A DNA stretch of 32,000 bases from Geotalea uraniireducens Rf4 (GTDB taxonomy: Bacteria; Desulfobacterota; Desulfuromonadia; Geobacterales; Geobacteraceae): NCBI RefSeq assembly GCF_000016745.1, contig NC_009483.1, forward strand, positions 2,430,001 to 2,462,000. Reading direction: 5' to 3'. Positions within the stretch are counted from its first letter, which is position 1. Each line of letters starts with the position of its first letter. This document shows, piece by piece, positions 6,020 through 26,245 of the stretch. A program made the translations under genes and the position numbers. The notes under the pieces are model-generated. The model saw only the letters and a program-made list of their open reading frames with translations. It was not told the DNA's origin and did no database searches.

Positions 6020-6202
6020 ATAGTGTCCATCCGGAAACCTCGGACGAGAAACTAGTGGACATTTACACATTTCGTGTGCTACAAATCGAACATTGTTCCA
6101 AAAACGCGGACCGTAACATGTGCGGATCCAATGCGTTTCACGAGTAAACACAATTAAATACCGCCAGGATTCCATGTGAACCGGGACGGGAGGCAATAGC
6201 TA

Positions 6203-10774: not shown

Positions 10775-11128
10775 GGGGGTGTAAAGGTTTCGACGGGGGT
10801 AATAAGCAAAGGTTGCATGCCGAGGTCCGGGTGGCTCGTTAAACAATCCGGGACGTTTTTAAACGCCGATAATTATAATTACGCTTTAGCAGCTTAATAA
10901 CCTGCTAACGATCTACCGCGCCTCTCCCATGGGTTAGGATAGATCGTCATTTTAGTGGGATAGCCGAGGGGAGGGCCTGTGGTCCCGAGGCGAAACTTTA
11001 GCAGGATCGAAATCCAGATATCCCGGCCAGTGGAGCTTTGGATGGCTAAAATAAAAACTGGTATAAGCATGTAGACGCCTTTCGTGTACGATCTTCGGAC
11101 GCGGGTTCGATTCCCGCCACCTCCACCA
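10775..11128 (+). ncRNA. ssrA: tmRNA (SsrA), tag reading frame encoding ADNYNYALAA
   Basis: 5' GGGGGTGTAAAGGTTTCGACGGGGG and 3' GGACGCGGGTTCGATTCCCGCCACCTCCACCA form the tRNA-Ala-like acceptor/T-arm. Internal frame GCC GAT AAT TAT AAT TAC GCT TTA GCA GCT TAA TAA. Confidence 0.95.
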
Positions 11129-11733: not shown

Positions 11734-11970
11734 AGATAATTGCAGCGTTGTCCGGTTTGGTTTTTGCTTACGTCCCGTAGGGACAGAATACTGGTAGCCG
11801 GGGAATTCATTCCCCGGTCATCCAGGCGAAATATCATCACGTCACGTACGTGACGTGGGGAAATATAGCATCTCATCCGGGGGATGAATCCCCCGGCTAC
11901 ATTCGAACGCCCCTAATGGGGCTTAACAACCTTGATGCACAAACCAAACCGGACAACGCTGAGATAATTG
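11734..11970. mobile_element. MITE-like non-autonomous element: 219 bp, 21-bp perfect terminal inverted repeats, 9-bp target-site duplication
   Basis: TIR-L CAGCGTTGTCCGGTTTGGTTT (11743-11763) is the exact reverse complement of 11941-11961. AGATAATTG flanks both ends (11734-11742 and 11962-11970). The interior has no ORF but has nested hairpins and a 20-bp perfect palindrome, CACGTCACGTACGTGACGTG (11838-11857). Confidence 0.8.
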
Positions 11971-11987
11971 AAATAAAGGTGATTCCA

Positions 11988-12182
11988 ATGCTGATCCGTG
12001 TCCAGTATGATGACGAATCCTTTGGCATGGTCGATGATACGATTCTTGAGACCATGATATCGAGAGATATAATAGTGGGTTTTCAGCGTTCAAGCGGGTG
12101 GGTAAGAATTGGACGTGATGAGGTAAGGGCTCCAAGAGTAGAAAGAAGGCGCAGTGGTGCTCTGATAAATATTTATGTTTAG
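11988..12182 (+). CDS. Small hypothetical protein (64 aa)
   Basis: ATG preceded by AAGGTG. The sequence MLIRVQYDDESFGMVDDTILETMISRDIIVGFQRSSGWVRIGRD resembles a short conserved delta-proteobacterial family I recall only vaguely. The track ORF (11850) starts inside the MITE, so I prefer the internal start. Confidence 0.45.
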   Translation: MLIRVQYDDESFGMVDDTILETMISRDIIVGFQRSSGWVRIGRDEVRAPRVERRRSGALINIYV

Positions 12183-12344
12183 ATAAGCTGCCTGACCATC
12201 CCATACGCACCCATCATCTATAACCCCGAGTAATATAAGTTTTCCAATAATCAGCAACATAAATCCAAATATTTTACGGTAGTTGCCGCATTGTAATGCA
12301 TGGGGCATCTACAGCAACGGGTATTGATTATCATGGAAACCATA

Positions 12345-12388
12345 TCATCCACAATTATTGTGGATAACTCACCTGTAGCTGTGGATAA
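12345..12388. promoter_or_regulatory. Cluster of three DnaA-box sequences
   Basis: TCATCCACA (12345-12353, 8/9 match), TGTGGATAA (12359-12367, 9/9 reverse complement of TTATCCACA) and TGTGGATAA (12380-12388, 9/9). The first two form a 19-bp palindrome. Confidence 0.55.
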
Positions 12389-12761
12389 GGATAAAAAAAT
12401 AACGTATCGTCAAGCACTTTTGCGTTATGCATAACAGATAGGCAGGATATGTAACTACCTGTAATTACTTGTCAATATAAATGTGCATGTGTATACAGTA
12501 TATTTTGAACCATGTAATCCCTGGCGATACAAAAAACAAATGTAAAAAGTGCATAACTACAAGTAACTACTACAAAAAGTAATGAGTTCTAATTATCGGA
12601 AAGGGGTGTTCGTGAACCGATCATGGCGCCGTTGTGTCGTGGCGCTAACCGCCTTTCTCGTTGACTTTAGCCGGTAAAGGGTGTAATAAACTTGCGTAAT
12701 TTTGCGGTGTTATGGGCGAAAGGTGATGGAGTGCGAACGCCGGGGGATAATGAAGTAACGA

Positions 12762-12800
12762 AAGCCGCCATTGTCAGCATGGTGCTGAATGCGGCTTTTG
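12762..12800 (+). terminator. Terminator-like long imperfect hairpin in ORF-free DNA upstream of the HEPN/MNT operon
   Basis: AAGCCGCCATTGTCAGCA-TGG-TGCTGAATGCGGCTT followed by TTTG. The T-run is short. Confidence 0.4.
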
Positions 12801-12890
12801 AGTTTGTGCTGACTGTTTCCCAAACCGTAGATTGATTTATAATGATTTAACCGGAATATACCGGGTTAGGCTTAACCTGGTGGAGGTACT

Positions 12891-13334
12891 ATGATCCTTA
12901 ACACCGATCACCTTAGGCGTTGCATCCGGACAATGCAATCGTCGCTGACCCTGTATGAACAGGCTGAGTCGGAGAGCATCGACCAGGAAGTCTTTCGCAA
13001 CGCCATCGTGAAGGGATACGAGTTGACGCAGGAAACCGCCTTCAAACTGCTGAAAAAGGCCCTCAGGGACTTCGGGCACGGGGCAAAGAAGCTCGATGCT
13101 ACGCCGATTAAGGAGATCTTGCGTCTTGCCGCCACCCATGGCCTAATGACGCTGGAAGAGGTGGAGCGCTGGTTTGCCTACCGCGACAACCGCAACAGCA
13201 CGGCGCACGATTACGGCGAAGGCTTCGCCAAAGAGACTTTGGTCCTGCTTCCCGGGTTCATTGCTGACGTCACCCGGCTGGAAGCCATGCTCCGCGAACG
13301 GTTCGGCGAGAAAGACGACAATGCCCAGGCTTGA
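12891..13334 (+). CDS. HEPN-domain protein, HI0074-type nucleotidyltransferase substrate-binding family (putative HepT-like toxin)
   Basis: Rx4H motif in YRDNRNSTAHDY. All-helical sequence typical of the HI0074 family. Overlaps the downstream MNT gene by 14 nt. Confidence 0.8.
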   Translation: MILNTDHLRRCIRTMQSSLTLYEQAESESIDQEVFRNAIVKGYELTQETAFKLLKKALRDFGHGAKKLDATPIKEILRLAATHGLMTLEEVERWFAYRDNRNSTAHDYGEGFAKETLVLLPGFIADVTRLEAMLRERFGEKDDNAQA

Positions 13335-13656
13335 TGCAGCTGCCCTCCATCTTCTCCCTCGCTACCTGGAGTTGGTGCGTACCGTGCTAAGCCGCCACCT
13401 TCCCCAAGCGGAGGTGTGGGCCTATGGCAGCCGCGTGAACGGCGATTGCCATGAGGCCAGCGACCTCGATCTGGTTGTGCGCAATCCTGCCGCGTTCGAT
13501 GAAGTTCTGCCCGACCTCCCTGACCTCAAGGAAGCCCTCGTGGAGAGCAACCTCCCCATTCGAGTAGATGTGGTAGATTGGGCGCGAATACCTGAATCGT
13601 TCCGCCGGGAGATTGAACGGGCGTATGTGGTGGTGCGTAGGGGCGGGGAAGAGTAA
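13321..13656 (+). CDS. Minimal nucleotidyltransferase (MNT-domain, putative MntA-like antitoxin)
   Basis: YGSRVNGDCHEASDLDLVV (GS-x-n-DxD pol-beta NTase motif). I place the start at ATG 13321 (MPRLDAAALH...) rather than the track's 13174, which overlaps the HEPN gene. Confidence 0.8.
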   Translation: MPRLDAAALHLLPRYLELVRTVLSRHLPQAEVWAYGSRVNGDCHEASDLDLVVRNPAAFDEVLPDLPDLKEALVESNLPIRVDVVDWARIPESFRREIERAYVVVRRGGEE

Positions 13657-13719
13657 ATGGTGGAAAGTGCCGGTGAGAGCCTCATTGACGAAAATCTGAA
13701 AACGGAGCTTTTGCGGTAA

Positions 13720-13983
13720 ATGATGGAAGAGATCATCAGGATAGATACAGCCGACGAACAGGGGAAGCCACCGGAAGAGGAAGGGATAGAAATCCCCCTG
13801 GACAGGATAAACCCGGATACGCTGCGCAACATGCTGTCGGAGTTTGTCACCAGGGAATGGGCGGATGAAGAATGCACCCTGGAAGCGAGGATCGAACAGG
13901 TCCTGGGCCAGTTGCGCGAGCATAAAGCCAAAGTAATGTACGACTTCAGAACGGAAACCTGGAATATTGTCCAGTGCCGATGA
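13720..13983 (+). CDS. YheU/UPF0270-family small protein
   Basis: IPLDRINPDTLRNMLSEFVTREW...LEARIEQVLGQLREHKAKVMYDFRTETWNIV follows the YheU pattern (IPWQ.L...TL.NLI..FVLREGTDYG...L...V..V..QL..G.A.L). Recognised from memory. Confidence 0.65.
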   Translation: MMEEIIRIDTADEQGKPPEEEGIEIPLDRINPDTLRNMLSEFVTREWADEECTLEARIEQVLGQLREHKAKVMYDFRTETWNIVQCR

Positions 13984-14060
13984 CATACCTCGCCGATTTG
14001 ACCCTCCACTTCGTTGATCATCACTGTCCAGCCACTAATTACAAGTAGCGAAAGGTTGAC
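13879..14060 (+). repeat. Island repeat, copy A (yheU 3' end plus ~75 bp downstream core)
   Basis: Aligns by eye with 16627-16809 at roughly 90 percent identity. Its last ~70 bp (CTCGCCGATT...CCACTTCGTTGATCATCACTGTCCAGCCAC.AATTACAAGTAGCGAAAGGTTGAC) also align with 18548-18612. Confidence 0.85.
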
Positions 14061-14085
14061 ACCAGGCGTTTCCAGGGTGTAAATA
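14056..14085 (+). promoter_or_regulatory. Sigma70-type promoter of module copy 1
   Basis: TTGACA-N18-TAAATA, conserved exactly in copy 2. Confidence 0.55.
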
Positions 14086-14161
14086 GAAGGCTGTTTTTAT
14101 GCGATATGGGAGTTTTGGGGATGGGTGAAAAAAAAGCGGAAAAGCGGTCGTGCTGAGGGAT

Positions 14162-14204
14162 AAAAACCGCCTTGGTCAATGATTTCTGACCGGCGGCTTT
14201 TTTT
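14162..14204 (+). terminator. Intrinsic terminator closing a ~115-nt leader/sRNA (module copy 1)
   Basis: CCGCC-TT-GGTCA-ATGATTTC-TGACC-GGCGG followed by CTTTTTTT, about 45 nt upstream of the 60-aa ORF. Confidence 0.7.
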
Positions 14205-14248
14205 CGTATAACAGCGGACATATTGGATAAATTGAAGGAGAAATATAG

Positions 14249-14431
14249 ATGGCAATGACAGTTGAAATCAAAGGCAATAAGCTTTGCATCGAAATTGACC
14301 TGGAAAAGCCGACACCCTCTGCATCCGGGAAAACCCTCGTGGTTGCCAGCACCCGGGGGAATGCCGTTACCACGGCTGAGGTTGACGGTAAGCCGGTGAC
14401 GATAGGGTTGAATGCGTATATCAAGCCGTGA
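14249..14431 (+). CDS. Small conserved hypothetical protein (60 aa), copy 1
   Basis: GAAGGAGA RBS. The protein is identical to the 18979-19161 copy despite 7 nucleotide differences, all synonymous. Confidence 0.8.
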   Translation: MAMTVEIKGNKLCIEIDLEKPTPSASGKTLVVASTRGNAVTTAEVDGKPVTIGLNAYIKP

Positions 14432-14603
14432 GGGGAGCGGTATTGGGGACTGAGAGAATTGTAAAAGTGATTTTTTATGATTCTCATGCTTTTGTGACCC
14501 CCATGTTCTTGGGAGAATTACATTGTCTCTTGAATGTTGATCAAATAGAATGTCAATCGGCTTCATGACTTATTCTGTCACACAAGTGTGATAAGGAGAT
14601 AGA

Positions 14604-15776
14604 ATGGAGATTCCTGCACATTACAGAGGCCGCGAACAGGCACTCATAAAGCATCAACTTCTGGAGACCTATCTCTACAAGCTGTTCATGATTGTTGGAC
14701 AGCACCAGCCAACGATCTCCTATGTCGATTGCTTTGCTGGCCCATGGCAGGTGGCATCGGACGATATGAGCGACACGTCAATAGGTCGCTCACTTTCTAC
14801 CATGAAAAACTGTCTTGAGAGCCTTCGGGATATGGGCCACAATGTCCGTTTCCGTGCCCTGTTCATAGAGAAGGATGTGACTGCATACCACCGGCTCAGA
14901 GGATATCTTGACTCCCTCGACACTCCTGTCGAGACCGAATCATTCCATGGTGAGTTCTACAATGTTCGCCACAAAATCCTCGATTGGTGTGGCCCAGCAG
15001 GATTTACCTTTTTCTTTGTCGATCCACTCGGCTGGAAGGGCATCGTCGAGGTTCCCACGCTGGAACCGTTTCTTCAGCGGCCTAACTCCGAATTCCTCAT
15101 AAACTTCATGTTTGAATTTATTCTCCGAGCGCATGACATACGCAAGCATGAGAAGGACATGATCGCAATTTTCGGCCAGGTTCCCCAGACAGATGATATG
15201 ACACCCGACCAGAAGGAATCCTACTTGGTTAATCTCTACCGGGCGAATCTGAAAAGAGTCCAACCGTTGCGGGGTGGTAAACCACGCTCCGTTACAGTAC
15301 CGATCCAGCGTCCTGGCAAGAATCGAACTCTCTACCATCTCGTCTACCTGACCCGTCATCCTCTCGGTATTGTCAAGTTCATGGAAGCATCGGAGCCCCT
15401 GGACTTCGTTCAGAAAGCTGTCCGCATACAGGCGAAGCATGATAAAAAGATTGAGACGACAGGACAATGTGAACTTTTTGGTGCCCTCGAAAATGTCAAG
15501 ATAGAGCAAGGAAACGTCCCTATCTCCGTGGTCAAGGAATACTGGCTCAGACAGCTTACTTCTCAACCACAATTATTCGGCATAGACAAACTCGCCGACA
15601 TGCTCGAAGAAACAGGCTGGTTCGAAAGCAATTTTCAAGAAGCCTTCCATGAACTTCAGAGGGAAGGTAAAGCAAAGAACCTCGATGATGCAGAAAAATC
15701 CAAGCGTCGGAAGAAGTTCGTTCATTTCGACGCGAACCGCAATTGTGGCGAGCGACTGGCAAAGGTGATACGATGA
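14604..15776 (+). CDS. tcmP: Three-Cys-motif partner protein TcmP-like (390 aa), function unknown
   Basis: The N-terminal pattern REQALIKHQLLETYL...YVDCFAGPW...FFFVDPLGW matches my recollection of the TIGR04474 family, which always neighbours DUF5131. AAGGAGA RBS. A 14-bp palindrome, TCACACAAGTGTGA, lies just upstream. Confidence 0.7.
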   Translation: MEIPAHYRGREQALIKHQLLETYLYKLFMIVGQHQPTISYVDCFAGPWQVASDDMSDTSIGRSLSTMKNCLESLRDMGHNVRFRALFIEKDVTAYHRLRGYLDSLDTPVETESFHGEFYNVRHKILDWCGPAGFTFFFVDPLGWKGIVEVPTLEPFLQRPNSEFLINFMFEFILRAHDIRKHEKDMIAIFGQVPQTDDMTPDQKESYLVNLYRANLKRVQPLRGGKPRSVTVPIQRPGKNRTLYHLVYLTRHPLGIVKFMEASEPLDFVQKAVRIQAKHDKKIETTGQCELFGALENVKIEQGNVPISVVKEYWLRQLTSQPQLFGIDKLADMLEETGWFESNFQEAFHELQREGKAKNLDDAEKSKRRKKFVHFDANRNCGERLAKVIR

Positions 15777-16549
15777 GCACACAAACATCAATAGAATGGA
15801 CCGAGCAGACCTGGAACCCCGCTGTGGGATGCAGCAAGGTGTCTCCCGGCTGTGCCAACTGCTATGCTGAGGCGATGGCCAAGCGCCTGCAGGCTATGAG
15901 GGTGAAGGGCTACGAAAACGGCTTTGCCCTGACCCTGTTACCCAATCGGCTGGAAGAGCCGCTGAAGCGGACCAAATCAACCATCTACTTCGTCAACTCC
16001 ATGAGCGATCTTTTTCATGAAGAGATCCCAGACGACTACATACGACAAGTGTTTGACGTGATCCGCCGAGCGCCGCAGCATACCTTTCAGGTGCTGACCA
16101 AGCGAGCTGAGCGGATGGCTGAATTTTTCCGGAGTTATGAACCACCAAGAAATGCTTGGCTGGGGGTGACGGTGGAGGATCGGAAATTCGGAGTTCCCCG
16201 TCTGGACTGGCTTCGCCAAGTGCCGGCACACATTCGATTTGTCTCCGTGGAACCGCTGCTGGAGGATTTGGGGAAGCTTGATTTGACCGGGATTCACTGG
16301 GTCATCGTCGGCGGAGAATCGGGGCCGAAGGCACGCCCGATGCAGCAGGAGTGGGTGCTGAACATCAAACGCCAATGCGACGAGCAATGTTCCGCCTTCT
16401 TCTTCAAACAGTGGGGAGGATGGGGCGTTGATGGTAAGAAGCGGGCGAAGAAGGAAAATGGGCGGTTGTTGCAGGGTAGGACGTGGGACGCGGTGCCGTT
16501 AGCATCGACACCCCCCAATGTTCAACAGTTTGAAATTGCAGGCTCGTGA
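15773..16549 (+). CDS. DUF5131 (phage Gp37/Gp68 family) protein with N-terminal three-Cys motif
   Basis: IEWTEQTWNPAVGCSKVSPGCANCYA (C-x6-C-x2-C), FVSVEPLLEDL, WVIVGGESGP and FFFKQWGG. I start it at ATG 15773 (MSTQTS...), which overlaps the tcmP stop as ATGA. Confidence 0.85.
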   Translation: MSTQTSIEWTEQTWNPAVGCSKVSPGCANCYAEAMAKRLQAMRVKGYENGFALTLLPNRLEEPLKRTKSTIYFVNSMSDLFHEEIPDDYIRQVFDVIRRAPQHTFQVLTKRAERMAEFFRSYEPPRNAWLGVTVEDRKFGVPRLDWLRQVPAHIRFVSVEPLLEDLGKLDLTGIHWVIVGGESGPKARPMQQEWVLNIKRQCDEQCSAFFFKQWGGWGVDGKKRAKKENGRLLQGRTWDAVPLASTPPNVQQFEIAGS

Positions 16550-16626
16550 AGTGGGTGGTAGATGCCTATTTGAGATTTTGTAAAATGTGTAGCTCCGGTA
16601 CTTATGTTTTCCGCTTATGTTTTCCG

Positions 16627-16731
16627 CTGGAAACGAGGATCGAACAGGTTCTGCACCAGCTGCGCGAACGTAAAGCAAAAGTAATGTATGACTTCAGAAC
16701 GGAAACCTGGAATATTGTCCAATGCCGATGA
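16627..16731 (+). pseudogene. Orphan 3' fragment of a second yheU-like gene (last 34 codons)
   Basis: Encodes LETRIEQVLHQLRERKAKVMYDFRTETWNIVQCR, versus LEARIEQVLGQLREHKAKVMYDFRTETWNIVQCR in the intact gene. No matching N-terminal part is present; the track ORF 16546-16731 begins in unrelated sequence. Confidence 0.8.
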
Positions 16732-16809
16732 CCATACCTCACCGATTTGACCATCCACTTCGTTGATCATCACTATCCAGCCACCAATTACAAATAGCGA
16801 AAGGTTGAC
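16627..16809 (+). repeat. Island repeat, copy B (diverged yheU 3' fragment plus core)
   Basis: See copy A. It diverges from copies A and C right after AAAGGTTGAC, so it lacks the -10 element and the leader. Confidence 0.85.
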
Positions 16810-16851
16810 CGATCACGTCAACTCCATCTGGACCATTCGATGGTTGTTAAC

Positions 16852-16889
16852 AATTACAGCTTGATTTTACTGTAATTGAGCCATATAAT
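16852..16889 (+). promoter_or_regulatory. hipBA promoter with overlapping inverted-repeat operator
   Basis: TTGATT-N17-TATAAT (16861-16889). The 8-bp perfect inverted repeat AATTACAG-N10-CTGTAATT (16852-16877) spans the -35 region. Confidence 0.6.
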
Positions 16890-16917
16890 ACCCGTAAAAC
16901 ATTGCAAGGGGTATTTT

Positions 16918-17265
16918 ATGACCCGAAACAGTTTGAGTAAAGAAGGGTTGCCGACCCCAGCGCAGCAGGCGGTCGAGGTGTTGGGAAGAAACATCCGGAT
17001 CGCCCGCAAACGCCGGGGCTGGAGCCTGGACGAGATGGCCGGGAGCATGCTGGTAACTCGCAAGACCCTCTCCCGACTGGAGAACGGCGATCCGGCAGTG
17101 GGGTTGTCCGTGTTGGCCGCGGCCCTGCATGTGCTGAACATGACGGACGATCTGAAGAAGGTTGCAACCCCGGAGAGCGATTCGGTGGGGATGTTTTACG
17201 AAAAACAGCGCCTGCCCCGGCGGGTCGGGAAAAAGAAGACTTCTGCTGACGATCTTGATTTCTAA
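16918..17265 (+). CDS. hipB: XRE-family HTH antitoxin (HipB-like)
   Basis: GRNIRIARKRRGWSLDEMAGSMLVTRKTLSRLENGD is a Cro/C1 HTH. Immediately upstream of hipA. I use ATG 16918 (MTRNSL...). Confidence 0.8.
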   Translation: MTRNSLSKEGLPTPAQQAVEVLGRNIRIARKRRGWSLDEMAGSMLVTRKTLSRLENGDPAVGLSVLAAALHVLNMTDDLKKVATPESDSVGMFYEKQRLPRRVGKKKTSADDLDF

Positions 17266-17267
17266 GG

Positions 17268-18506
17268 ATGCCTGTCTTGGCCCGAGAACACAAAGTATAT
17301 GTCTTCATTTACCTTCCCGGCGAGACCACGGCGGTTCCGGCTGGGCTGTTCACCCATTACCCCGATGACGGCATCGGCCGTTTTGCCTATGGCCGCCGTT
17401 ACCTGGAGCGCCCTAACGCCCTGCCGGTGGACCCTGTGGCGCTGCCTTTGGGTGGCATGCCCAGGGATGTCACCACCAATGGCGGTCTGTACGGCGCCTT
17501 CCGTGACTCGTCTCCCGATTACTGGGGGCGGCTGGTTGTTGCCGCTGAAGCACGCATGCCGCCCGAAGCCCTGGATGAAACGGATTATCTCCTGCGCGCC
17601 AATGCATCGAGGATCGGTTGCCTCGATTTCCGGGCTTCGCTGGAGCAGGGTGAACCCGTGGTCGGACCGCCCGGTTTTCAATCGCTGGCAGAACTTCTGG
17701 ATGCCGCTTCGGATCTGGCAGCCGGAAAACAGGTCAGACAGGATCTGCTGCGGCTTCTGGAGCAGGGTTCGAGCGTCGGCGGCGCCCGGCCCAAGTGTAC
17801 CGTAGAGTTGGATGATGCCCTCTGGATAGCCAAATTCCCGGCCAAGGACGATACGATCAACTTCCCCAAGGTCGAGTACGCCACCATGACCCTGGCGGGG
17901 AGGTGCGGGATCAACGTGCCGACAATGCGTGTCGTGGCTATCGGCGGCAGGGATGTGCTGCTGGTGAAACGCTTCGACCGGCACAAGTCTGGCGGCGGGT
18001 ATCAACGGTTCGGTTTCCTGAGCGCCCTGTCACTCATGGAATGGGACGAACGGGACCGCACAGAGTGGAGCTATCCGGCCCTGGCGGACAGGATGCGCGC
18101 AACCATTCTGGCCCAGCGGGCACAAACCGGGGAACTCTTTCGCCGGATGCTGTTTAACGTGCTGTGCCGGAATACGGACGACCATCCCCGCAACCACGGC
18201 TTCCTGTGGGGCGAACGGGCAACGGCCCTTTCCCCGGCCTATGATATTGTGCCGTCATTGGCCCGGCCCGGCGTAACCACTGAATTTTCCCTTTCCATGT
18301 CCCTGGGCGAAAGGGGCAGGGAAGCGACCCTGGCCAATGCCGTGAGTATGCATGCCCGCTTCGGGCTGACACGGAGTGAAGCGGAACAGGTCATCGACGA
18401 CATGCGGGCCTGTGTGGCGAAGTGGGAGCAACTCTTCATCACCTGCGGGGTTTCCGAGGCGGACAGGGATGCTGTCCGGGCTTCGTTTGCCGTGGCGACG
18501 TCGTAG
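17268..18506 (+). CDS. hipA: HipA-family serine/threonine kinase toxin
   Basis: GSSVGGARPKCTV, WIAKFP, LLVKRFDR and CRNTDDHPRNHGFLW are canonical HipA N- and C-domain motifs. Confidence 0.9.
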   Translation: MPVLAREHKVYVFIYLPGETTAVPAGLFTHYPDDGIGRFAYGRRYLERPNALPVDPVALPLGGMPRDVTTNGGLYGAFRDSSPDYWGRLVVAAEARMPPEALDETDYLLRANASRIGCLDFRASLEQGEPVVGPPGFQSLAELLDAASDLAAGKQVRQDLLRLLEQGSSVGGARPKCTVELDDALWIAKFPAKDDTINFPKVEYATMTLAGRCGINVPTMRVVAIGGRDVLLVKRFDRHKSGGGYQRFGFLSALSLMEWDERDRTEWSYPALADRMRATILAQRAQTGELFRRMLFNVLCRNTDDHPRNHGFLWGERATALSPAYDIVPSLARPGVTTEFSLSMSLGERGREATLANAVSMHARFGLTRSEAEQVIDDMRACVAKWEQLFITCGVSEADRDAVRASFAVATS

Positions 18507-18607
18507 TGGCGACCGGTCGTTCGCTCCGACATCATTCGATGGCATAACTCGCCGATTCCACTTCGTTGATCATCACTGTCCAGCCACCGATTACAAGTAG
18601 CGAAAGG

Positions 18608-18637
18608 TTGACACCAGGCGTTTCCAGGGTGTAAATA
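18608..18637 (+). promoter_or_regulatory. Sigma70-type promoter of module copy 2
   Basis: Identical TTGACA-N18-TAAATA to copy 1. Confidence 0.55.
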
Positions 18638-18713
18638 GAAGGCTGTTTTTATGTGATATGGGAGTTTTGGGGATGGGTGAAAAAAAAGCGGAAAAGCGGT
18701 CGTGCTGAGGGAT

Positions 18714-18756
18714 AAAAGCCGCCTTGGTCAATGATTTCTGACCGGCGGCTTTTTTT
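18714..18756 (+). terminator. Intrinsic terminator closing the leader (module copy 2)
   Basis: AGCCGCC-TT-GGTCA-ATGATTTC-TGACC-GGCGGCT plus TTTTTT. The single A-to-G difference from copy 1 extends the stem. Confidence 0.7.
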
Positions 18757-18776
18757 ACTGTAACAGCGGACATATC

Positions 18777-18971
18777 GGATAAATTGAAGGAGAGCTCACT
18801 CTCAAGCTGACCAACTTCAATTATACCTATTTATACTTGAAACTAGATATAAATGTGTATAAATTGCTCGCCATTTCGTGTGTCCGGCGTGCGGGGCTGC
18901 CGTGCCTATTGAGGTTTGGCGGGGCGGTGAGCTCTGTGGTAACTGTTTTTTTCAGGATAAATTGAAGGAGA
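18777..18971 (+). repeat. 17-bp direct duplication (GGATAAATTGAAGGAGA) flanking a 161-bp insert between leader and 60-aa ORF
   Basis: Direct repeats at 18777-18793 and 18955-18971. The insert starts GCTCAC and ends near GTGAGCTC (short inverted repeat) and contains AT-rich promoter-like sequence (TTGAAA...TATAAA). The insert is absent from module copy 1. Confidence 0.75.
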
Positions 18972-18978
18972 ACTCCCC

Positions 18979-19161
18979 ATGGCAATGACAGTTGAAATCA
19001 AAGGCAATAAGCTTTGCATCGAAATTGACCTGGAAAAGCCGACACCCTCTGCATCCGGGAAAACCCTCGTGGTTGCCAGCACCAGGGGGAATGCCGTTAC
19101 TACGGCCGAGGTTGATGGCAAACCGGTGACGATAGGGTTGAATGCGTATATTAAGCCGTGA
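18979..19161 (+). CDS. Small conserved hypothetical protein (60 aa), copy 2
   Basis: Same protein as 14249-14431. GAAGGAGA RBS. Confidence 0.8.
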   Translation: MAMTVEIKGNKLCIEIDLEKPTPSASGKTLVVASTRGNAVTTAEVDGKPVTIGLNAYIKP

Positions 19162-19290
19162 AGGGAGAGGTGTTGAGGGCTGAAGGAATTTAAAATTGAT
19201 TTTTCAAGAACTGGCCTTCCTTGCCCCTGCTTATTCTTCTCAGATTTTTGTAAAATTTAGGATGACTATATTGTTCAGGAGAGCATCTGC

Positions 19291-20811
19291 GTGTTGACTG
19301 GTGAAAACAAGGCAAAGATTGACAAGATATGGGATGCGTTCTGGACGGGTGGGATTTCCGATTCCCTGCGGGTGATCGAGCAGATGTCGTACCTGCTGTT
19401 TATCAAGCGGCTGGATGACCTCCACACGGCAAAGGAGAAGAAGGCCAACCGGCTGGGCAAGCCGATCGAGGAGCCGATCTTCGGGCCGAAGCAGGATCAT
19501 CTGCGCTGGTCGCGCTTCCGGGAGTTCGAGGCGGGGGAGATGTTCCGCGTGGTGAGCCAGGAGGTCTTCCCCTTCATCAAGAATCTGCACGGCAACGAGG
19601 AGAGCGCCTACGCCCGGCACATGAAGGACGCTATCTTCATGATCCCCACCCCGAGCCTCCTGGAGCGGGTGGTGGAGCAGATCAGCCAGGTGCCGATGGA
19701 AGACCGGGACACCAAGGGGGACCTGTACGAGTACATGCTCTCCAAGCTGACTACTGCCGGCAGAAACGGCCAGTTCCGCACCCCTCGCCATATCATCAAG
19801 ATGATGGTGGAGCTGATGCAGCCCCGGCCCGACGATATCATCTGCGACCCGGCCTGCGGCACGGCGGGCTTCCTGGTGGCGGCCGGAGAATACCTGCGCG
19901 AGCATCACGGCGATTTGTTCCATAATGAAAAGCTGAAGAAGCACTTCAACGAAAAGCTCTTCAACGGCTTCGACTTCGACTCCACCATGCTCCGCATCGC
20001 CAGCATGAACATGATGCTGCACGGTGTGGAGAACCCGGCCATCGAGGCGCGGGATTCGCTTTCCAGTGCTGCCGACATAGCAGATGCATATACCCTGATT
20101 TTAGCCAATCCTCCCTTCAAGGGGTCGCTGGATGAGGATACCGTCGCCAAGGACCTGCTGCGTACGGTCAAGACCAAGAAGACCGAGCTGCTGTTCATCG
20201 CTCTGATGCTGCGGCTGTTGAAGCCGGGCGGGCGCTGTGCGGTGATTGTTCCGGACGGGGTGCTGTTCGGCTCCAGTAAGGCGCACCTGGACCTGCGCAA
20301 GATACTGGTGGACGGCCACAAGCTGGAGGCGATGATCTCCATGCCCTCCGGTGTGTTCCGCCCCTATGCGGGGGTCTCCACCGGAATACTGATCTTCACC
20401 AAGACCAACTCCGGCGGCACGGATCATGTCTGGTTTTACGACATGCAGGCCGATGGCTTCTCGCTGGATGACAAGCGCAATCCGGTGGAGCAGAACGATA
20501 TTCCCGATGTAGTAGAGTCGTGGCTTCGGCTCCGCTCAGCCACCGGGCTTCTCTCAACTGCCGGGCAGGTCGAAGGTGGTACGCTGAGCGGAGTCGAAGC
20601 GGGACGTACCGCCAAATCCTTCCTCGTCTCGGTGCAGGAGATTCGCGACAACAAGTACGACCTCTCCATCAACCGTTACAAGAAAGTGGAGCATGAGGAG
20701 GTGGCCTACGAGCCGCCGCAGGTTATCATTGCCCGGTTGGAGGCGCTGGAGCGGGAGATTGCCGGGGAGTTGGCGGAGTTGGCCCTTCGACTCCGCTCAG
20801 GGAACGATTAA
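19291..20811 (+). CDS. hsdM: Type I restriction-modification system methyltransferase subunit HsdM (N6-adenine), carrying an in-frame repeat insertion
   Basis: N-terminal KIWDAFWTGGI...IEQMSYLLFIKRLDD, FRTPRHII, DPACGTAGFL (motif I) and ANPPFKG (motif IV). GTG start with a GGAGAG RBS. Confidence 0.92.
   Translation: MLTGENKAKIDKIWDAFWTGGISDSLRVIEQMSYLLFIKRLDDLHTAKEKKANRLGKPIEEPIFGPKQDHLRWSRFREFEAGEMFRVVSQEVFPFIKNLHGNEESAYARHMKDAIFMIPTPSLLERVVEQISQVPMEDRDTKGDLYEYMLSKLTTAGRNGQFRTPRHIIKMMVELMQPRPDDIICDPACGTAGFLVAAGEYLREHHGDLFHNEKLKKHFNEKLFNGFDFDSTMLRIASMNMMLHGVENPAIEARDSLSSAADIADAYTLILANPPFKGSLDEDTVAKDLLRTVKTKKTELLFIALMLRLLKPGGRCAVIVPDGVLFGSSKAHLDLRKILVDGHKLEAMISMPSGVFRPYAGVSTGILIFTKTNSGGTDHVWFYDMQADGFSLDDKRNPVEQNDIPDVVESWLRLRSATGLLSTAGQVEGGTLSGVEAGRTAKSFLVSVQEIRDNKYDLSINRYKKVEHEEVAYEPPQVIIARLEALEREIAGELAELALRLRSGND
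20523..20600. repeat. Palindromic repeat element U1 (78 bp) inside the hsdM coding sequence, in frame
   Basis: GCTTCGGCTCCGCTCAGCCACCG ... GGTGGTACGCTGAGCGGAGTCGAAGC. It translates as LRLRSATGLLSTAGQVEGGTLSGVEA (26 codons). Confidence 0.8.
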
Positions 20812-21290
20812 GGTCTGGCTTCGGCTCCGCTCAGCCACCGGGCGTCTCCGTTTGCCGGTGCGGTGGTTTTCGGTGGCTGAGCGGAGTCGAAGCCAGGTTT
20901 AGGGGAATATCCAGCATGCCCTACATGTACATCCTCGAATGCGCGGACGGCAGCTACTACACGGGAAGCACCAAGGATCTGGATCGCCGTCTTTGGGAGC
21001 ATCAGAACGGACTGGGCGCGAATCATACAGCCAGGAGGCTTCCCGTAAAACTTGTTTACTGTGAGGAATGCGACCGCATCGATGACGCGTTCTATCGTGA
21101 AAAACAGGTTCAGGGATGGAGCCGAAAAAAGAAAGAGGCTTTGATGGCAAGTGATACAAATCAGCTTCATCGGTTGGCGGTTTGTCGGAATGAAAGCCAT
21201 TGTGCTGGCTTCGGCTCCGCTCAGCCAGCGGACACCGACACCGCTCAATTAAAAGATAACCTTGCCTGTTCCCTGAGCGGAGTCGAAGGG
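20783..21290. mobile_element. GIY-YIG gene cassette bounded by 20-bp perfect inverted repeats, at the hsdM/hsdS junction
   Basis: CCCTTCGACTCCGCTCAGGG (20783-20802) is the exact reverse complement of CCCTGAGCGGAGTCGAAGGG (21271-21290). Inside are palindromic unit U2 (20817-20894), the GIY-YIG ORF and a forward half-site (21207-21230). Confidence 0.7.
20817..20894. repeat. Palindromic repeat element U2 (78 bp), intergenic
   Basis: GGCTTCGGCTCCGCTCAGCCACCG-spacer-CGGTGGCTGAGCGGAGTCGAAGCC, the same family as U1. Confidence 0.85.
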
Positions 21291-21314
21291 AACAAAAAGG
21301 GGATGGTGGAATGA
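20916..21314 (+). CDS. Small GIY-YIG nuclease family protein (core ~85 aa; the tail reads through repeat sequence)
   Basis: YMYILECADGSYYTGSTKDLDRRLWEHQ...ANHTARRLP.KLVY...REKQVQGWSRKKK are the GIY, YIG, R, H and E catalytic-core elements. The C-terminal GFGSAQPA and SLSGVEGN are translations of the repeat family. The stop overlaps the hsdS ATG (ATGA). Confidence 0.8.
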   Translation: MPYMYILECADGSYYTGSTKDLDRRLWEHQNGLGANHTARRLPVKLVYCEECDRIDDAFYREKQVQGWSRKKKEALMASDTNQLHRLAVCRNESHCAGFGSAQPADTDTAQLKDNLACSLSGVEGNKKGMVE

Positions 21315-22492
21315 AGTACTCTTATGTTCCACTAGGTGGACTTGTAACAATATCCGGTGGTGGTACGCCGAGTCGGAATAATGATGCTTACTGGGGTGGC
21401 AGCATTCCATGGGCTACGGTAAAAGACCTTAAAGACACCATGCTTTCCGGCACGCAAGAAACAATTACTCCCGAAGGACTTAGAGATAGTGCATCGAACC
21501 TGATTCCTGCGGGCAGTGTGATCGTTGCAACACGCATGGGTCTTGGTAAGGTTGCAATCAACACGATGGATGTAACCATCAATCAGGATTTGAAAGCGTT
21601 TTCATGTGGCGCTGATCTTGAACCTCGTTATTTGCTGTATTTCCTTCTCGCGAATGCTTCACATCTCGATTCAATGGGAAAAGGAGCTACCGTCAAGGGC
21701 ATTACGCTTGATGTTCTTAAAGATCTTTCCGTCCCTCTCCCCCCACTCCCCGAACAAAAGCGCATCGCTGCCATCCTCGACAAGGCTGATTCTATCCGGC
21801 GAAAGCGGCAGGAGGCGGTACGGTTGACTGAGGAACTGCTGCGCTCGGTGTTTCTGGATATGTTTGGTGATCCGGAAAGTAATAACTGGCCGATGATGAC
21901 CATAGCCGGAGTTGCGCTGCCAGGAGTTAGCGCAATTCGGACCGGGCCATTTGGCAGTCAACTCCTACACAGCGAGTTCGTCGATGAAGGCGTTGCAGTT
22001 CTGGGGATTGATAATGCTGTAGCTAATGAATTCCGTTGGAACGAACGCCGCTATATATCTGAGGCAAAATATCGCGAATTATCACGATATACCGTAAGAC
22101 CAGGCGACGTCATTATCACTATTATGGGAACATGCGGTCGGTGTGCAGTTGTACCGGACGATATACCAGTTGCAATCAATACAAAACATCTTTGTTGCAT
22201 CACGCTTGACCAAACAAAATGCCTGCCGGTTTTTGTTCATGCATATTTTCTACAACATTGCATTGCCCGACGTTACCTGGAGAAAACAGCTAAAGGTGCA
22301 ATAATGGACGGCCTGAACATGGGTATTATCAAGGATATGCCAATTCCTATACCCCCTCTAAAGCTCCAGGAAAAATTCGCATGTTCTATTGCAGCTATTG
22401 AAAAATTAAGACACACGACTCGGTCAACCTTGGCAGAACAAGACACCCTCTTTCACTCTCTCCTGCAACGCGCCTTCAATGGGGCGTTGTAA
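21311..22492 (+). CDS. hsdS: Type I R-M specificity subunit HsdS (two target-recognition domains)
   Basis: Two conserved spacer helices, PLPPLPEQKRIAAILDKADSIRRKRQEA...LLRSVFLDMFG and IPIPPLKLQEKFACSIAAIEKL...LFHSLLQRAFNG, separated by variable TRDs. Confidence 0.9.
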   Translation: MKYSYVPLGGLVTISGGGTPSRNNDAYWGGSIPWATVKDLKDTMLSGTQETITPEGLRDSASNLIPAGSVIVATRMGLGKVAINTMDVTINQDLKAFSCGADLEPRYLLYFLLANASHLDSMGKGATVKGITLDVLKDLSVPLPPLPEQKRIAAILDKADSIRRKRQEAVRLTEELLRSVFLDMFGDPESNNWPMMTIAGVALPGVSAIRTGPFGSQLLHSEFVDEGVAVLGIDNAVANEFRWNERRYISEAKYRELSRYTVRPGDVIITIMGTCGRCAVVPDDIPVAINTKHLCCITLDQTKCLPVFVHAYFLQHCIARRYLEKTAKGAIMDGLNMGIIKDMPIPIPPLKLQEKFACSIAAIEKLRHTTRSTLAEQDTLFHSLLQRAFNGAL

Positions 22493-22497
22493 ACCGA

Positions 22498-22633
22498 GCT
22501 TCGACTCCGCTCAGCCACCGCGCTTCGACTCCGCTCAGCCACCGCGCTTCGACAACACTCAACACAATTCCGCTCTCTTCACTCTGTGGCTCAGCTTCCA
22601 AATGTTGCCCGGTCCCTGAGCGGAGTCGAAGGG
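22498..22633. repeat. Repeat cluster U4: 24-bp unit GCTTCGACTCCGCTCAGCCACCGC in 2 tandem copies plus an 8-nt partial third, then the inverted half-site
   Basis: Units at 22498-22521 and 22522-22545, partial at 22546-22553. Inverted CCCTGAGCGGAGTCGAAGGG at 22614-22633. Confidence 0.85.
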
Positions 22634-22725
22634 CCGCTCAGCCGATGTTAAATTTTGGACAGACAGAAACAATTTGACCTTTTCATGTCCATAACGTACA
22701 ATTTGTACAAATGGAGGTTGTCATC

Positions 22726-22977
22726 ATGACCAAAATATCAACAGCAGAAGCCCGCAATGATTTCGCCGATGTCATCAACCGGGCATCGTTCGGCAAGGAA
22801 CGCTTTGTCCTGACGCGGCGAGGTAAAAAACTGGTCGCGATTGTACCGGTTGAAGACCTGGAGCTTCTCGAAGAGATGGAAGACCGAATGGACGTTGAAG
22901 CGGCCAAGGCGGCCCTGGCAGAATCCGATGAGCGGGTTTCGTATGAGGATTTGCGTCGTGAGCTGGGGCTTAAATGA
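22726..22977 (+). CDS. Phd/YefM-family antitoxin
   Basis: ISTAEARNDFADVINRASFGKERFVLTRRGKKLVAIVPVEDLE. GGAGG RBS. Palindrome GTACA-ATT-TGTAC upstream. The stop overlaps the toxin start (ATGA). Confidence 0.85.
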   Translation: MTKISTAEARNDFADVINRASFGKERFVLTRRGKKLVAIVPVEDLELLEEMEDRMDVEAAKAALAESDERVSYEDLRRELGLK

Positions 22978-23231
22978 CCTATCGGATTGAGTTGACCAAG
23001 ACGGCGGAACGGGATTTATTGGCTGTTCCCAAACCAGTTTTGAAACGGCTGGATGCTTGCATCCTCGGACTGGCAGACGATCCGCTGCCGCCGGGAGTAA
23101 AGAAGCTCAAGAACAGTGACGGCCTGTACCGTGTGAGAGTGAGCGATTATCGCATTATCTACCGCATTGAGCAGGAAATTTTGACTGTCCTGGTTGTCAA
23201 GATAGGCCACCGGCGGGAAGTTTATCGTTAG
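22974..23231 (+). CDS. RelE/ParE-family toxin
   Basis: Has the fold pattern typical of the 85-aa RelE/ParE family: IELTKTAERDL...L..DP.PPG.KKL....GLYRVRVSDYRIIYRIE.E.L.V.VVKIGHRREVY. Confidence 0.85.
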   Translation: MTYRIELTKTAERDLLAVPKPVLKRLDACILGLADDPLPPGVKKLKNSDGLYRVRVSDYRIIYRIEQEILTVLVVKIGHRREVYR

Positions 23232-23268
23232 CATCAATTGCCTTTTTCAATGATATCCCGGAGGGGTA

Positions 23269-25822
23269 GTGTCCAATTTCACCTTCCTCAACACCGACTG
23301 GCCCGAGCTGTGTGAGATAGCCCGCGAAGCCGAGCAGAACGTCAACAGCGCCCCTCGGACCAGTTGTTTCTATGCCCGGCGCTCGCTGGAGAGGGCGGTG
23401 AAGTGGCTCTATACCAATGACTCCTACCTCAGGCAACCCTACGCCGACAACCTGGCCGCACTGATCCACGAACCGACCTTCCGGGAGAACCTGGAACCCT
23501 GCCTCTTCCCCAAGATCCTCACCATCCAGAAAATCGGCAACCTGGCCGTCCACAGCGACAAACCGATCAGCAACAGTGATTCCCTCCACACTCTCAAAGA
23601 ACTCTTCCACGTCCTCTACTGGCTGGCCCGCAGCTATTCCCCAAATGCGGCGGCCATTGGCAAACCGCTCTTCGACATCTCCAAAATCCCGCAGAAGGAC
23701 AGTGCCGTTGCCGACCGCAACGCCGAGCAGCTGGCCAGGATGCAGGCCGACCTGTCGGAAAGAGACGCCAGACTGGCCGCTAAGGATGCGGAGCTGGCCA
23801 GGACGATAGATGAAATAGAGGCCCTCAAAGCCAGGATTCAGCCCCGGCCATTTCGACCTGATCGTCATCGACGAGGCCCACCGCTCTGTCTACCAGAAGT
23901 TCTGCGCCATCTTAGAGTATTTCGACTCCCTGCTGCTGGGGCTTACCGCCACGCCGCGGGCCGAGGCGGACCGGGATACCTACCGGCTGTTCGAGCTGGA
24001 GAAGGGGGTTCCCACCTACTACTACGAGCTGGGGCAGGCGGTGACGGACGGCTTCCTGGTGCCGCCAAAGGCCCACTCGGTGCCGCTCAAGTTCCAGCGG
24101 GAGGGGATCAGCTACAACGAGCTCTCCGAAGAGGAACAGTTGGAGTACGAGGAGAAATTCTGGGACGAGGAAGCCGGCGGCATGCCGGAGAAGATCGACC
24201 CGCCGGCCTTGAACAACTGGCTGTTTAACATCGACACCGTGGATAAAGTGCTGGAGCACCTGATGCGGCACGGTCTCAAGGTGGCTGGTGGCGACCGATT
24301 GGGGAAAACGATCATCTTTGCCAAGAACCACAACCACGCCCTCTTTATCCAGGAGCGCTTCGACGCCAACTACCCCCACCTGAAAGGAAAGTTCTGCCGA
24401 ATCATCGACAACTATGAATCCTATGCCCAGAGCCTGATCGACGACTTCTCGGTAAAGGAGAACGACCCGACCATCGCCATTTCGGTGGACATGCTGGACA
24501 CCGGCATCGACGTGCCGGAAATCGTCAACTTGGTCTTCTTTAAGCTTGTCCGCTCCAAAACCAAGTTCCACCAGATGATGGGGCGCGGCACCAGGCTCTG
24601 CAAGGAGCTGTTCGGGCCGGGAGAGGACAAGAAGGAGTTTTACGTCTTCGACTACTGCCAGAATTTCGAGTTCTTTGCCGAAAAACCGGAAGGGGTGGAG
24701 AGCGGCAGCCAGGAGTCGCTGGGCAAGAAGATCTTCAAGCAGCGTCTGAACCTGCTTGTCCGCCTGCAACAGCCGGACTACCCGGCCAGCGACGAAGAGC
24801 GGCGCCTGCGGGGGAGTCTGGAGGATACCCTGCATGGCGAGGTATCCGTGATGAACCCGGACAACTTCATCGTCCGTCCCCATCGCCGACATCTGGAGAA
24901 ATACAGTGCCAGGGACAAGTGGAACAGTTTGAGCGCGGAAGACGAACTGGAAGTGAGGCTCCATCTGGCGGGACTGCCGGCGGAGCTCCCGCAGGAAGAC
25001 GAGACCGCCAAACGCTTCGACCTGCTGTTGCTGAACCTGCAACTGGCACTGTTGGAGAAATCCGGCTCCTTTGCCCGTTACCGGGACAAGGTGATGGAGA
25101 TCGCCGCCCGGCTGGAAGGGAAAGGGACGATCCCCATGGTGGCACAACAGATGGAGCTGATCCTGGAGCTGCAAACGGAAGGGTACTGGGCCGGTATTAC
25201 TCTGCCCATGCTTGAAGAGGTGCGCGTCCGCTTGCGGCAGCTGATCAAGTTCCTGGACAAAGGCGAGGCGCGGATCGTCTATACCGACTTCGAGGATAGT
25301 ATCGGCGACCATACTCCCATATTTGTGCCGGGTTATTCCAGTGCGGAGGATATGCGCCAGTATCGGCTGAAGGTGGAACGCTTCATCCGCGACCATGCCG
25401 GGCACATCACCATCAACAAGCTGCGGATGAACCGGCATATTACCCGGCAGGACCTGGAAGAGCTGGAGCGGCTATTGTTTACAGCGGAAGAGGTGGGGAG
25501 CCGGGAGCGTTTCGAGAAGGTCTTCGGCCACCAGCAGAGCCTAGGGGCGTTTATCCGCAGCCTGGTCGGCCTGGACCGGGAAGCGGCCACCGAGGCCTTC
25601 GGCGAATTCCTGCACGGCACGACCTACTCGGCTACCCAGATCAGGTTCATCGATCAGATCATAGCTTATCTGACCCAGAACGGCACCATGGACCCCGGAC
25701 TGCTCTACGAGCCACCATTTACCGATATTCACGACGAAGGGTTGGACGGGGTGTTTGGCGATGAGGGGGCGACGAAGATTATACATTTGCTGGAAGAGAT
25801 CACCCTGAAGGCGGCTGTGTAA
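23269..25822 (+). pseudogene. hsdR: Type I restriction enzyme R subunit (HsdR) with internal deletion and frameshift
   Basis: Frame 1 encodes an N-terminal DUF4145-like domain plus coiled coil up to ...EIEALKARIQ (about 23840). Frame 2 then continues as GHFDLIVIDEAHRSVYQKF...LTATP...helicase C-domain...MMGRGTRL to 25822. No PD-(D/E)xK nuclease domain or Walker A (motif I) lies between them, and there is no in-frame start before 24041. Confidence 0.8.
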
Positions 25823-25924
25823 TCAAATCCCTACGCGATGGACAAATGAAAAATTCCGCTCAGTTCATGCTGGATAGCACACAGGAACAGTTGAAACTGA
25901 TTGCGGATGATGTGGGGGAAAGCG

Positions 25925-26164
25925 ATGAATCGGCATGACCAGCCGTACGACTGGCAGCGGTTCTGGATACACTTCGTGTGCGGCGCCCTGATTGGCGGTG
26001 GAATCGGTTTTTTCTACTGGTTCCGTCACTGGCACGCCGGGCTGTCCGTGTGGGGTTGCACCGCCTTTCCGTCGCTGGCTCTCGCCTTGCTCGGTGGGGT
26101 ATTCGGGGACTGCTTCTGGGAGGGTTTCCTCAAATTCATCCGCCGCTGGTACTGGTGGGTGTGA
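25925..26164 (+). CDS. Small hypothetical membrane protein (79 aa, two hydrophobic segments)
   Basis: MNRHDQPYDWQRFWIHFVCGALIGGGIGFFYWF...AFPSLALALLGGVFG, with GGGGGA upstream. No family recognised. Confidence 0.4.
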   Translation: MNRHDQPYDWQRFWIHFVCGALIGGGIGFFYWFRHWHAGLSVWGCTAFPSLALALLGGVFGDCFWEGFLKFIRRWYWWV

Positions 26165-26245
26165 CGAGAGAGGTAATAGTCAAAGGACCGATCAAGCCGG
26201 ATCGGACAGATCGGTTTGTCGCACTACCGGGAAAGCAGGAGAGCC

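Follow-up and report, generated by a model that had tools for sequence, protein, structure and literature searches.

A stretch of 32,000 nt from Geotalea uraniireducens Rf4 (contig NC_009483.1; hereafter the window, in whose positions coordinates are given unless another locus is named) contains, at 14044-14204 on the forward strand, a short element made up of a promoter, a predicted RNA, and a terminator, which we refer to as the unit. In our favored reading, which we hold at roughly even confidence, this unit is a stand-alone small RNA (sRNA)-type transcription unit representing a new family outside Rfam in some Geobacteraceae/Desulfuromonadales-like bacteria. It has the features of an sRNA gene: a promoter of its own, a Rho-independent terminator (hairpin and U-tract in all nine aligned sequences), conservation confined to the span between them, and no coding content. 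Judged from these sequence features, the unit would be transcribed and would act in trans. An earlier note on this DNA had proposed that the element is a riboswitch or attenuator gating downstream DNA-modification genes or, alternatively, an independent sRNA. Its observations are partly confirmed here, and its interpretation is partly supported. The sRNA alternative fits the sharp conservation limits, the occurrence of the unit at several loci, and the combination of a constant upstream ykuD gene with a changing downstream gene. Ligand sensing, an antiterminator, and gating in the manner of a restriction-modification (R-M) C protein are not supported.

Anatomy of the unit

The conserved promoter region (14044-14087, + strand) has a -35 hexamer, TTGACA, at 14056-14061 and, after an 18-nt spacer, a -10-like TAAATA at 14080-14085, which confirms the coordinates given for this promoter in the earlier note. 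The -35 reads TTGACA in eight of nine aligned sequences and TTGACT in the ninth (L176; loci retrieved for comparison are designated by L and a number), and the sequence upstream of it is A/T-rich. The -10 is variable among homologues, with TAAATA, TAAAAA, TACAAA, TGCAAA, and TAAAAT all represented.

The predicted non-coding transcript of this first copy (~113 nt; 14088-14204, + strand) has a C-poor, G/A/U-rich 5′ portion of ~75 nt that is unstructured by prediction. Its conserved motifs are UGGGAG, CGGAAUA, and GUYGUGCKGAGRGAURAA, together with an A-rich tract. The transcript ends in an intrinsic terminator (14166-14204, + strand), a bulged 10-bp GC-rich hairpin (CCGCC-UU-GGUCA / UGACC-GGCGG) followed by U7, as described before. 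A terminator scan calls both copies of this terminator present in the window, with fold energies of -16.2 kcal/mol for copy 1 and -22.4 kcal/mol for copy 2, and all homologues have a good U-tract on the + strand only.

The region up to the terminator had been described as lacking an open reading frame (ORF), and this holds across homologues, in which no ORF or reading frame is conserved on either strand. A 9-codon ORF in the leader of copy 1 (ATG-CGA...) collapses to ATG-TGA in copy 2, and the long antisense open frames in the unit are a composition effect, with the frame shifting between homologues. A 44-nt spacer (14205-14248, + strand) separates the terminator from a gene for a 60-aa protein that starts at ATG 14249. 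Its Shine-Dalgarno (SD) sequence, GGAG at 14237-14240, lies ~33 nt past the U-tract, close to the ~35 nt first estimated, and a sigma-70 scan calls no promoter-like site within the spacer.

Conservation across lineages

Homologues were collected by three routes, namely contigs encoding an identical 60-aa protein, matches to a terminator pattern in metagenomes, and contigs carrying ykuD orthologues. A profile search with nhmmer then confirmed the unit at the collected loci, with E-values from 1e-26 to 1e-49. The unit is present in L089 (94% identity), L083 (80%), L092, L093/L094, L103, L175, and L176, which make up seven lineages, so the leader is conserved well beyond the two copies in the window. 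In five of these lineages, it lies directly 3′ of the L,D-transpeptidase gene ykuD, and the gene that follows is different each time: the 60-aa gene in L083; Fic, HEPN, and MNT genes in L093/L094; a DHH phosphoesterase gene in L103; a 70-aa ORF and a PilZ response regulator gene in L175; and an HlyIII gene in L176. The distance to the next gene at these ykuD-linked units ranges from ~45 to 240 nt. In L089, as for copy 1 in the window, the unit stands 3′ of a yheU-like gene and is followed by the 60-aa gene, and in L092 it stands between a PilZ gene and a gene for a 121-aa coiled-coil protein. The yheU/PilZ-linked and ykuD-linked units form two paralogous subgroups.

Conservation starts at approximately -45/-60, 5′ of the -35, and ends at the T-tract, and both flanks are unrelated between contexts. 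Pairwise identity is 59-98% in the promoter, 55-92% in the RNA body, and 70-98% in the terminator, and the transcribed length is held at 114-119 nt. The YkuD proteins of unit-bearing lineages are 66-81% identical. Ordinary intergenic DNA would not be alignable between lineages this far apart.

The distribution of the unit is limited. It is absent after ykuD in other lineages and paralogues (L095-L102 and L104-L109) and from phage, plasmid, and IMG/VR collections, with 65 pattern matches in IMG/VR attributable to chance. Against metagenome contigs, a strict promoter pattern gave no matches, and the terminator pattern gave three true matches and one chance match. Searches of the literature on Geobacter sRNAs and for exact sequence strings found nothing relevant.

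Structure and predicted mechanism

Consistent with the earlier failure to match the element to a known riboswitch class, Rfam 15 returned nothing at the gathering threshold or at E ≤ 10 in the window and nothing at the gathering threshold in eight homologous loci. The leader outside the terminator folds like shuffled sequence (single-sequence z = -1.3 and -1.8 for the two copies). RNAalifold, run with six and then nine homologues, recovered, besides the terminator, nothing but a trivial helix of 4 bp rich in G-U pairs, with a covariation term of ~0 in a sample of only seven lineages, which leaves such tests little power. The terminator itself had 95% of cells paired over nine homologues, compared to 39-65% in slid controls, and no compensation is visible in it because it varies too little.

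An antiterminator formed between upstream AAGCGG/AGCGGT repeats and the ACCGCC arm of the terminator had been suggested, but this pairing did not survive comparison. The GCGGU/ACCGC helix is 4-5 bp long, its closing pair is lost in five of nine homologues, G-U pairs make up two of the other four, and no compensatory change is seen. Before the 3′ arm of the terminator is added, the nascent RNA is predicted to fold differently in different homologues, and no mutually exclusive terminator/antiterminator helices are conserved.

The mechanism that we favor is as follows. A sigma-70-type promoter with a near-perfectly conserved -35, A/T-rich upstream sequence, and an atypical -10 would drive the unit. 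The resulting ~113-nt transcript would be essentially single-stranded, with a few conserved motifs, over its C-poor, purine/U-rich 5′ two-thirds. A strong GC-rich hairpin and a tail of U7-8 would close it, and sRNAs that act in trans, of the Hfq type or by sequestering a protein, are built in this way. Such an RNA would have neither a ligand-sensing fold nor a terminator/antiterminator switch, and the downstream gene would get only residual read-through.

Other types of RNA element were considered and found unsupported. For a riboswitch, there is no Rfam match, no conserved fold or covariation, and no antiterminator, and the downstream genes are unrelated. A leader-peptide attenuator was rejected, as it does not fit the loss of the short ORF in copy 2 or the lack of a common frame among homologues. 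The number of GGA motifs (3-4) equals the base-composition expectation, so a CsrA sponge has no support; the G-tracts of a putative G-quadruplex are not conserved in the alignment; and in place of a ToxI-type repeat array, Tandem Repeats Finder finds only AAAAGCGG twice. Like attenuation leaders and riboswitches, the unit combines a promoter, an untranslated leader, and a terminator shortly before an SD or start codon, and it lies upstream of more than one gene. Unlike them, it has no conserved aptamer, covariation, mutually exclusive helix, or leader peptide, its downstream genes are functionally unrelated, and it stays with the upstream gene across lineages. The proposal that such a switch gates the modification genes is thus mostly unsupported, all the more so as these cassettes are absent from L089 and both TcmP and the copy-2 region have promoter-like sites of their own.

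The 60-aa gene

The 60-aa gene (copy 1, 14249-14431, + strand) encodes a highly conserved small protein and is an optional neighbor of the unit. Its second copy (18979-19161, + strand), next to hsdM, differs from the first by seven synonymous and no non-synonymous changes. The protein has >2100 homologues, counted as cluster representatives, at ≥83% identity, and the gene is found at no fewer than 578 loci in species-representative genomes of Desulfuromonadota, Chlorobiaceae, Holophaga, and others, with several copies per genome. At the nucleotide level, conservation is limited to the ORF and SD, with a codon periodicity. For the protein, Pfam and PADLOC gave no match and NCBIfam no significant one, a PDB sequence search was empty, and the AlphaFold model, with a predicted local distance difference test (pLDDT) score of 53, was too low in confidence to be used for a fold search.

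The upstream DNA of this gene was compared for the best 80 of the at least 578 genomic loci. BLAST found the unit missing from all 80, and upstream DNA was unrelated beyond the SD. The sole BLAST match was in L033, where a 32-nt copy of the promoter is joined directly to the 5′ untranslated region (UTR) of the 60-aa gene. Half of the contigs with an identical 60-aa protein (5/10) also lack the leader. The genes 3′ of the 60-aa gene belong to 86 different Pfam families in 56 loci. Because the 80 loci lack the leader and the downstream families are so diverse, neither the leader nor an R-M context is general to the 60-aa gene.

The comparison with C-protein control of R-M systems is not supported either. 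The likeness is one of position alone, in that the type I R-M operon at copy 2 is preceded by a small gene. By contrast, the 60-aa protein has no helix-turn-helix or other domain match, no C-box-like feature is defined, the unit and gene also precede non-R-M genes, and the R-M block is a lineage-specific insertion.

Several further features of the 60-aa loci are recorded here. Defense genes often follow the gene, including type I R-M, TcmP/DUF5131, a large methylase (L033), Shedu, and SRAP, as well as BrxA/BrxB-like genes (L031, identified by eye) and a Gabija-like OLD and UvrD pair (L082). At ~16 of the 80 loci, an 87-aa ORF comes next, its ATG overlapping the stop codon of the 60-aa gene (ATGA; e.g., L003 3183-3446), an arrangement like the coupled pairs of toxin-antitoxin (TA) systems. 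This 87-aa partner had no match in a PDB sequence search. In the window, ~35 nt resembling its start (14429-14465 and 19159-19195) are all that remains after both copies.

Alternative explanations

Several findings weigh against an sRNA acting in trans. The sigma-70 scan of the window misses the unit's promoter because the -10 ends in A, and the canonical final T of this element is missing in six of the seven lineages. RNAduplex comparison of the RNA with nearby translation starts, including that of ykuD, gave values within the shuffled range and no target, and the covariation tests, as noted, were of low power. The neighbors of the unit, a constant upstream ykuD and changing downstream genes, speak for independence from the next gene, yet in every context the unit is co-oriented with that gene. 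In four contexts, represented by window copy 1 and L089, L083, L092, and L093, it ends 38-62 nt before a start codon with no promoter-like site called between, as would suit a 5′ leader. Finally, terminated leaders of three sequence types (the first in the window twice, L089, and L083; the second in L084 and L087; the third in L031) precede a single nucleotide subclade of the 60-aa gene, and this linkage exceeds random placement.

When the 150 nt preceding each of 86 copies of the 60-aa gene were scanned for terminators, there were eight matches, five of which have their T-tract 49-53 nt from the ATG (L083 and L089, with the main unit, and L084, L087, and L031). All 60-aa copies with a T-tract at this distance fall in the nucleotide subclade starting ATGGCAATGACA. 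The leaders of L084 and L087 are a different G-rich RNA with the promoter TTGACC or TTGCCA-17-TACATT. The L031 leader has a terminator in common with the main unit (z = 8.9) and a 27-nt -10/+1 block in common with another element in the window (z = 11.9). This "type 2" unit (12661-12808, + strand), a possible distant relative of the main unit, consists of TTGACT-17-TAATAA, a ~120-nt RNA, and a terminator-like hairpin. Its RNA folds well (-43.9 kcal/mol, z = -3.7), and the type 2 unit lies ~80 nt upstream of a HEPN/MNT pair. The post-terminator spacer is common to L083, L084, and L087. The subclade linkage can be read either as the signature of a portable attenuating leader or as the result of cassettes recombining just 3′ of such terminators. 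As a separate observation, these post-terminator spacers carry runs of TTCATNN heptads (TTCATAA/TTCATCC) at L083 3958-4000, L084 3740-4000, and L087 ~2630-2678, with three blocks within 260 nt in L084. The heptads may be protein-binding repeats.

A portable leader acting in cis is the main alternative, though a tentative one. The promoter, ~110-nt RNA, and strong terminator would hold the next gene, typically the 60-aa gene or a toxin-like gene, at a low level, with read-through that is constitutive and leaky or that is raised by an RNA-binding protein on GUYGUGCKGAGRGAURAAAGCCGCC, which abuts the stem. The uniform orientation and the short gaps free of called promoters favor this explanation, as does the recurrence of one architecture in three different leader sequences 49-53 nt ahead of the 60-aa gene. 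The fusion of the promoter to the gene's 5′ UTR in L033 would be expected if the promoter serves the 60-aa gene, and within the RNA body conservation is highest next to the terminator. Genes downstream are toxin-like in two contexts (Fic and HEPN/MNT), and the type 2 unit is also ahead of HEPN/MNT. However, the downstream functions as a whole are unrelated (60-aa, Fic, DHH, HlyIII, 70-aa ORF, 121-aa coiled-coil), and the gap widens to 145-240 nt in L103, L175, and L176. There is no conserved alternative pairing, with the antiterminator broken in five of nine homologues, nor covariation or an Rfam match. The leader is also missing at 80 of 80 genomic 60-aa loci and in five of ten identical-protein contigs, and synteny is with the upstream ykuD rather than the downstream gene. 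Still, the adjacent 60-aa gene may be attenuated passively or with the help of a protein.

It is improbable, in our estimation, that the RNA has no function at all and that a conserved terminator, which would also end the upstream transcript, simply stands beside a conserved promoter/operator, with the sequence between as neutral recombination baggage. The promoter and terminator are indeed better conserved than the body (59-98% and 70-98% vs. 55-92%), and divergence of the body between the window and L083 is not below that of four-fold sites in the adjacent gene. In L092, the 3′ end of the upstream ORF extends into the promoter, and in several contexts the upstream gene has no other terminator. 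In the alignment, the -35 and -10 form an imperfect inverted repeat (TTGACACC-N12-GGTGTAAA) that could be an operator. Yet the body remains alignable, with invariant motifs, where the flanks are unalignable and YkuD is only 66-67% identical. A promoter-terminator pair with nothing useful between would be odd to keep at three or more loci, and the transcribed length is constant at 114-119 nt.

We are similarly doubtful of a broader idea, in which the unit and its looser type 2 and type 3 relatives are a landing pad and gate for mobile cassettes that Geobacter-like genomes exchange by recombination just 3′ of the terminator. This would be a functional analogue of the integron Pc-attI without an integrase. 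If true, the exchanged DNA would be cassettes headed by the 60-aa gene, or toxin and defense genes, and new arrivals that might be toxic would be expressed only at read-through level because the terminator would throttle the strong promoter of the unit. Three findings fit: the ykuD locus becomes variable immediately 3′ of the T-tract in five lineages; in L083, a ykuD-type unit is joined to the spacer and 60-aa gene that L084 and L087 have behind another leader; and three nested junctions occur at the unit in the window.

Least credible is a type III-like RNA-protein TA pair, in which the RNA would serve as antitoxin against the 60-aa protein and the balance of RNA to protein would be set by the terminator: the promoter-RNA-terminator-small gene order and the TA/defense setting recall type III systems (ToxIN, AbiEi-independent RNA antitoxins), and the leader is linked to one 60-aa subclade, but the RNA has no tandem repeats or repeat array beyond AAAAGCGG twice, the protein carries neither an RNase nor a ToxN/AbiQ-like domain and is matched by nothing in Pfam, PADLOC, or PDB, the protein occurs without the RNA at >80 loci and the RNA without the protein in at least five lineages, and ~16 of 80 loci couple the protein to the 87-aa ORF instead.

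Duplication and the surrounding defense island

The unit is part of a repeat in which 14005-14241 and 18557-18793 match over 237 nt at 97% identity, far exceeding chance, and the unit is also present in other genomes. The second copy of the promoter, transcript, and terminator (18596-18756, + strand) has its -35 at 18608-18613, its -10 at 18632-18637, and its terminator at 18718-18756. Between the predicted start and the terminator end, the copies differ by exactly two substitutions, 14103 C>T and 14166 A>G, and the change at 14166 gives the terminator stem of copy 2 one more G-C pair; the earlier count of about two substitutions, one lengthening the helix, was accurate. The repeat had been placed at 18608-18756, and the second copy there is real, but the duplication is longer than noted, with a start further upstream (13984/14005), and there are also a third truncated copy and a 161-nt insert before the second ORF.

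The sequence between the stop codon of the yheU-like gene and the conserved unit (segment "B," 13984-14043, + strand) is found three times in the window and also in L089, and lies outside the family conserved across genomes. The truncated third copy (16627-16809, + strand) comprises the last 106 nt of the yheU-like gene and a further 77 nt that include segment B. It breaks at GGTTGAC within the -35 hexamer, and hipBA is next. At copy 2, a 17-nt direct repeat, GGATAAATTGAAGGAGA (18777-18793 and 18955-18971, + strand), flanks a unique 161-nt insert (18794-18954) that separates the leader and an SD-like sequence from the 60-aa ORF. This insert contains a promoter-like TTGAAA-17-TAAATT at 18837-18865 and has no match among the fetched loci.

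These elements belong to a defense island positioned 3′ of the transfer-messenger RNA (tmRNA) gene (10775-11128). In order, the island contains the HEPN/MNT pair, the yheU-like gene, the unit, the 60-aa gene, TcmP/DUF5131, the truncated copy, and HipBA, followed by unit 2, the second 60-aa gene, hsdM, a GIY-YIG gene, hsdS, a RelB/ParE-like pair, and hsdR. The TcmP and DUF5131 genes are the candidate defense pair PDC-M30 and no known DNA-modification system, and TcmP has promoter-like sites of its own at 14523-14605. Of the two DNA-modification cassettes first proposed, this pair is the first, and the second is a type I R-M system.

Comparison with L089, which encodes an identical 60-aa protein, bears on how this arrangement arose. 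L089 is collinear with the window at 92% identity from 11962 to 14440 and again from 27162, and it has a single copy of the unit. The intervening 12.7 kb of the window (14441-27161) has no counterpart there and carries TcmP/DUF5131, the truncated copy, hipBA, copy 2, the type I R-M genes with the GIY-YIG gene and RelB/ParE-like pair among them, and a zinc-ribbon protein gene. Because L089 has one unit copy and lacks these 12.7 kb, the duplication is part of the build-up of the island, and the two-fold occurrence reflects recombinational assembly rather than shared regulation of two cassettes. Probably, segment B, the RNA unit, and the 60-aa gene were duplicated together while the defense/TA cassettes assembled downstream of a resident 60-aa gene. 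An island formed by an ssrA-targeted integrase was rejected, as neither a duplicate of the tmRNA 3′ end nor an integrase was found.

At the site of the 12.7-kb block, L089 has 260 nt with an apparent remnant of the hsdS C-terminus. A 42-codon ORF resembling the HsdS C-terminal helix (L089 2677-2805) sits exactly at the insertion site, which suggests that an earlier R-M system was lost from this site.

The window has other features of interest. At 11743-11962, 3′ of the tmRNA gene, there is a 220-nt nested palindrome with 21-nt perfect outer arms and several inner hairpins (-125 kcal/mol, z = -11.4). It looks like a miniature inverted-repeat transposable element (MITE)-like insertion because it is missing from the otherwise collinear L089. 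Within the R-M region, five copies of a REP-like motif (GCTTCGGCTCCGCTCAGCC...) at 20523-22561 surround the GIY-YIG gene between hsdM and hsdS, the RelB/ParE-like pair lies at 22711-23231 between hsdS and hsdR, and hsdR is apparently split between overlapping frames at 23269-24228 and 24041-25822, which may reflect a frameshift or a pseudogene. Elsewhere, we found a pan motif (RF01749, 45.7 bits) at 6108-6193, a tandem array with a 9-nt unit at 26613-26916, and seven 15-nt tandem repeats within an ORF at 29423-29542.

Implications

Trans-acting sRNA genes with Rho-independent terminators occur as small multi-copy families, such as Qrr1-5, OmrA/OmrB, and RsmX/Y/Z. The unit described here is similar to these families in that it has a promoter of its own, measures ~110-120 nt, and is conserved from promoter to terminator, with paralogous copies at different loci. 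Its 5′ part, like theirs, is mostly unstructured and carries short conserved motifs and an A-rich tract, and its 3′ end is a GC hairpin with a U-tail. It differs in that it matches no Rfam sequence or covariance model, and in that it points in every context the same way as the next gene, to which it is often very near.

The 60-aa gene is probably more intriguing than the unit, given ≥83% identity across phyla, multiple copies, and a position ahead of varied defense systems. If the unit is transcribed, it would be an unannotated sRNA or portable-leader family in Geobacteraceae, in which very few regulatory RNAs are characterized. Because it borders variable TA/defense regions, it may also offer a handle on how these regions are insulated or expressed.

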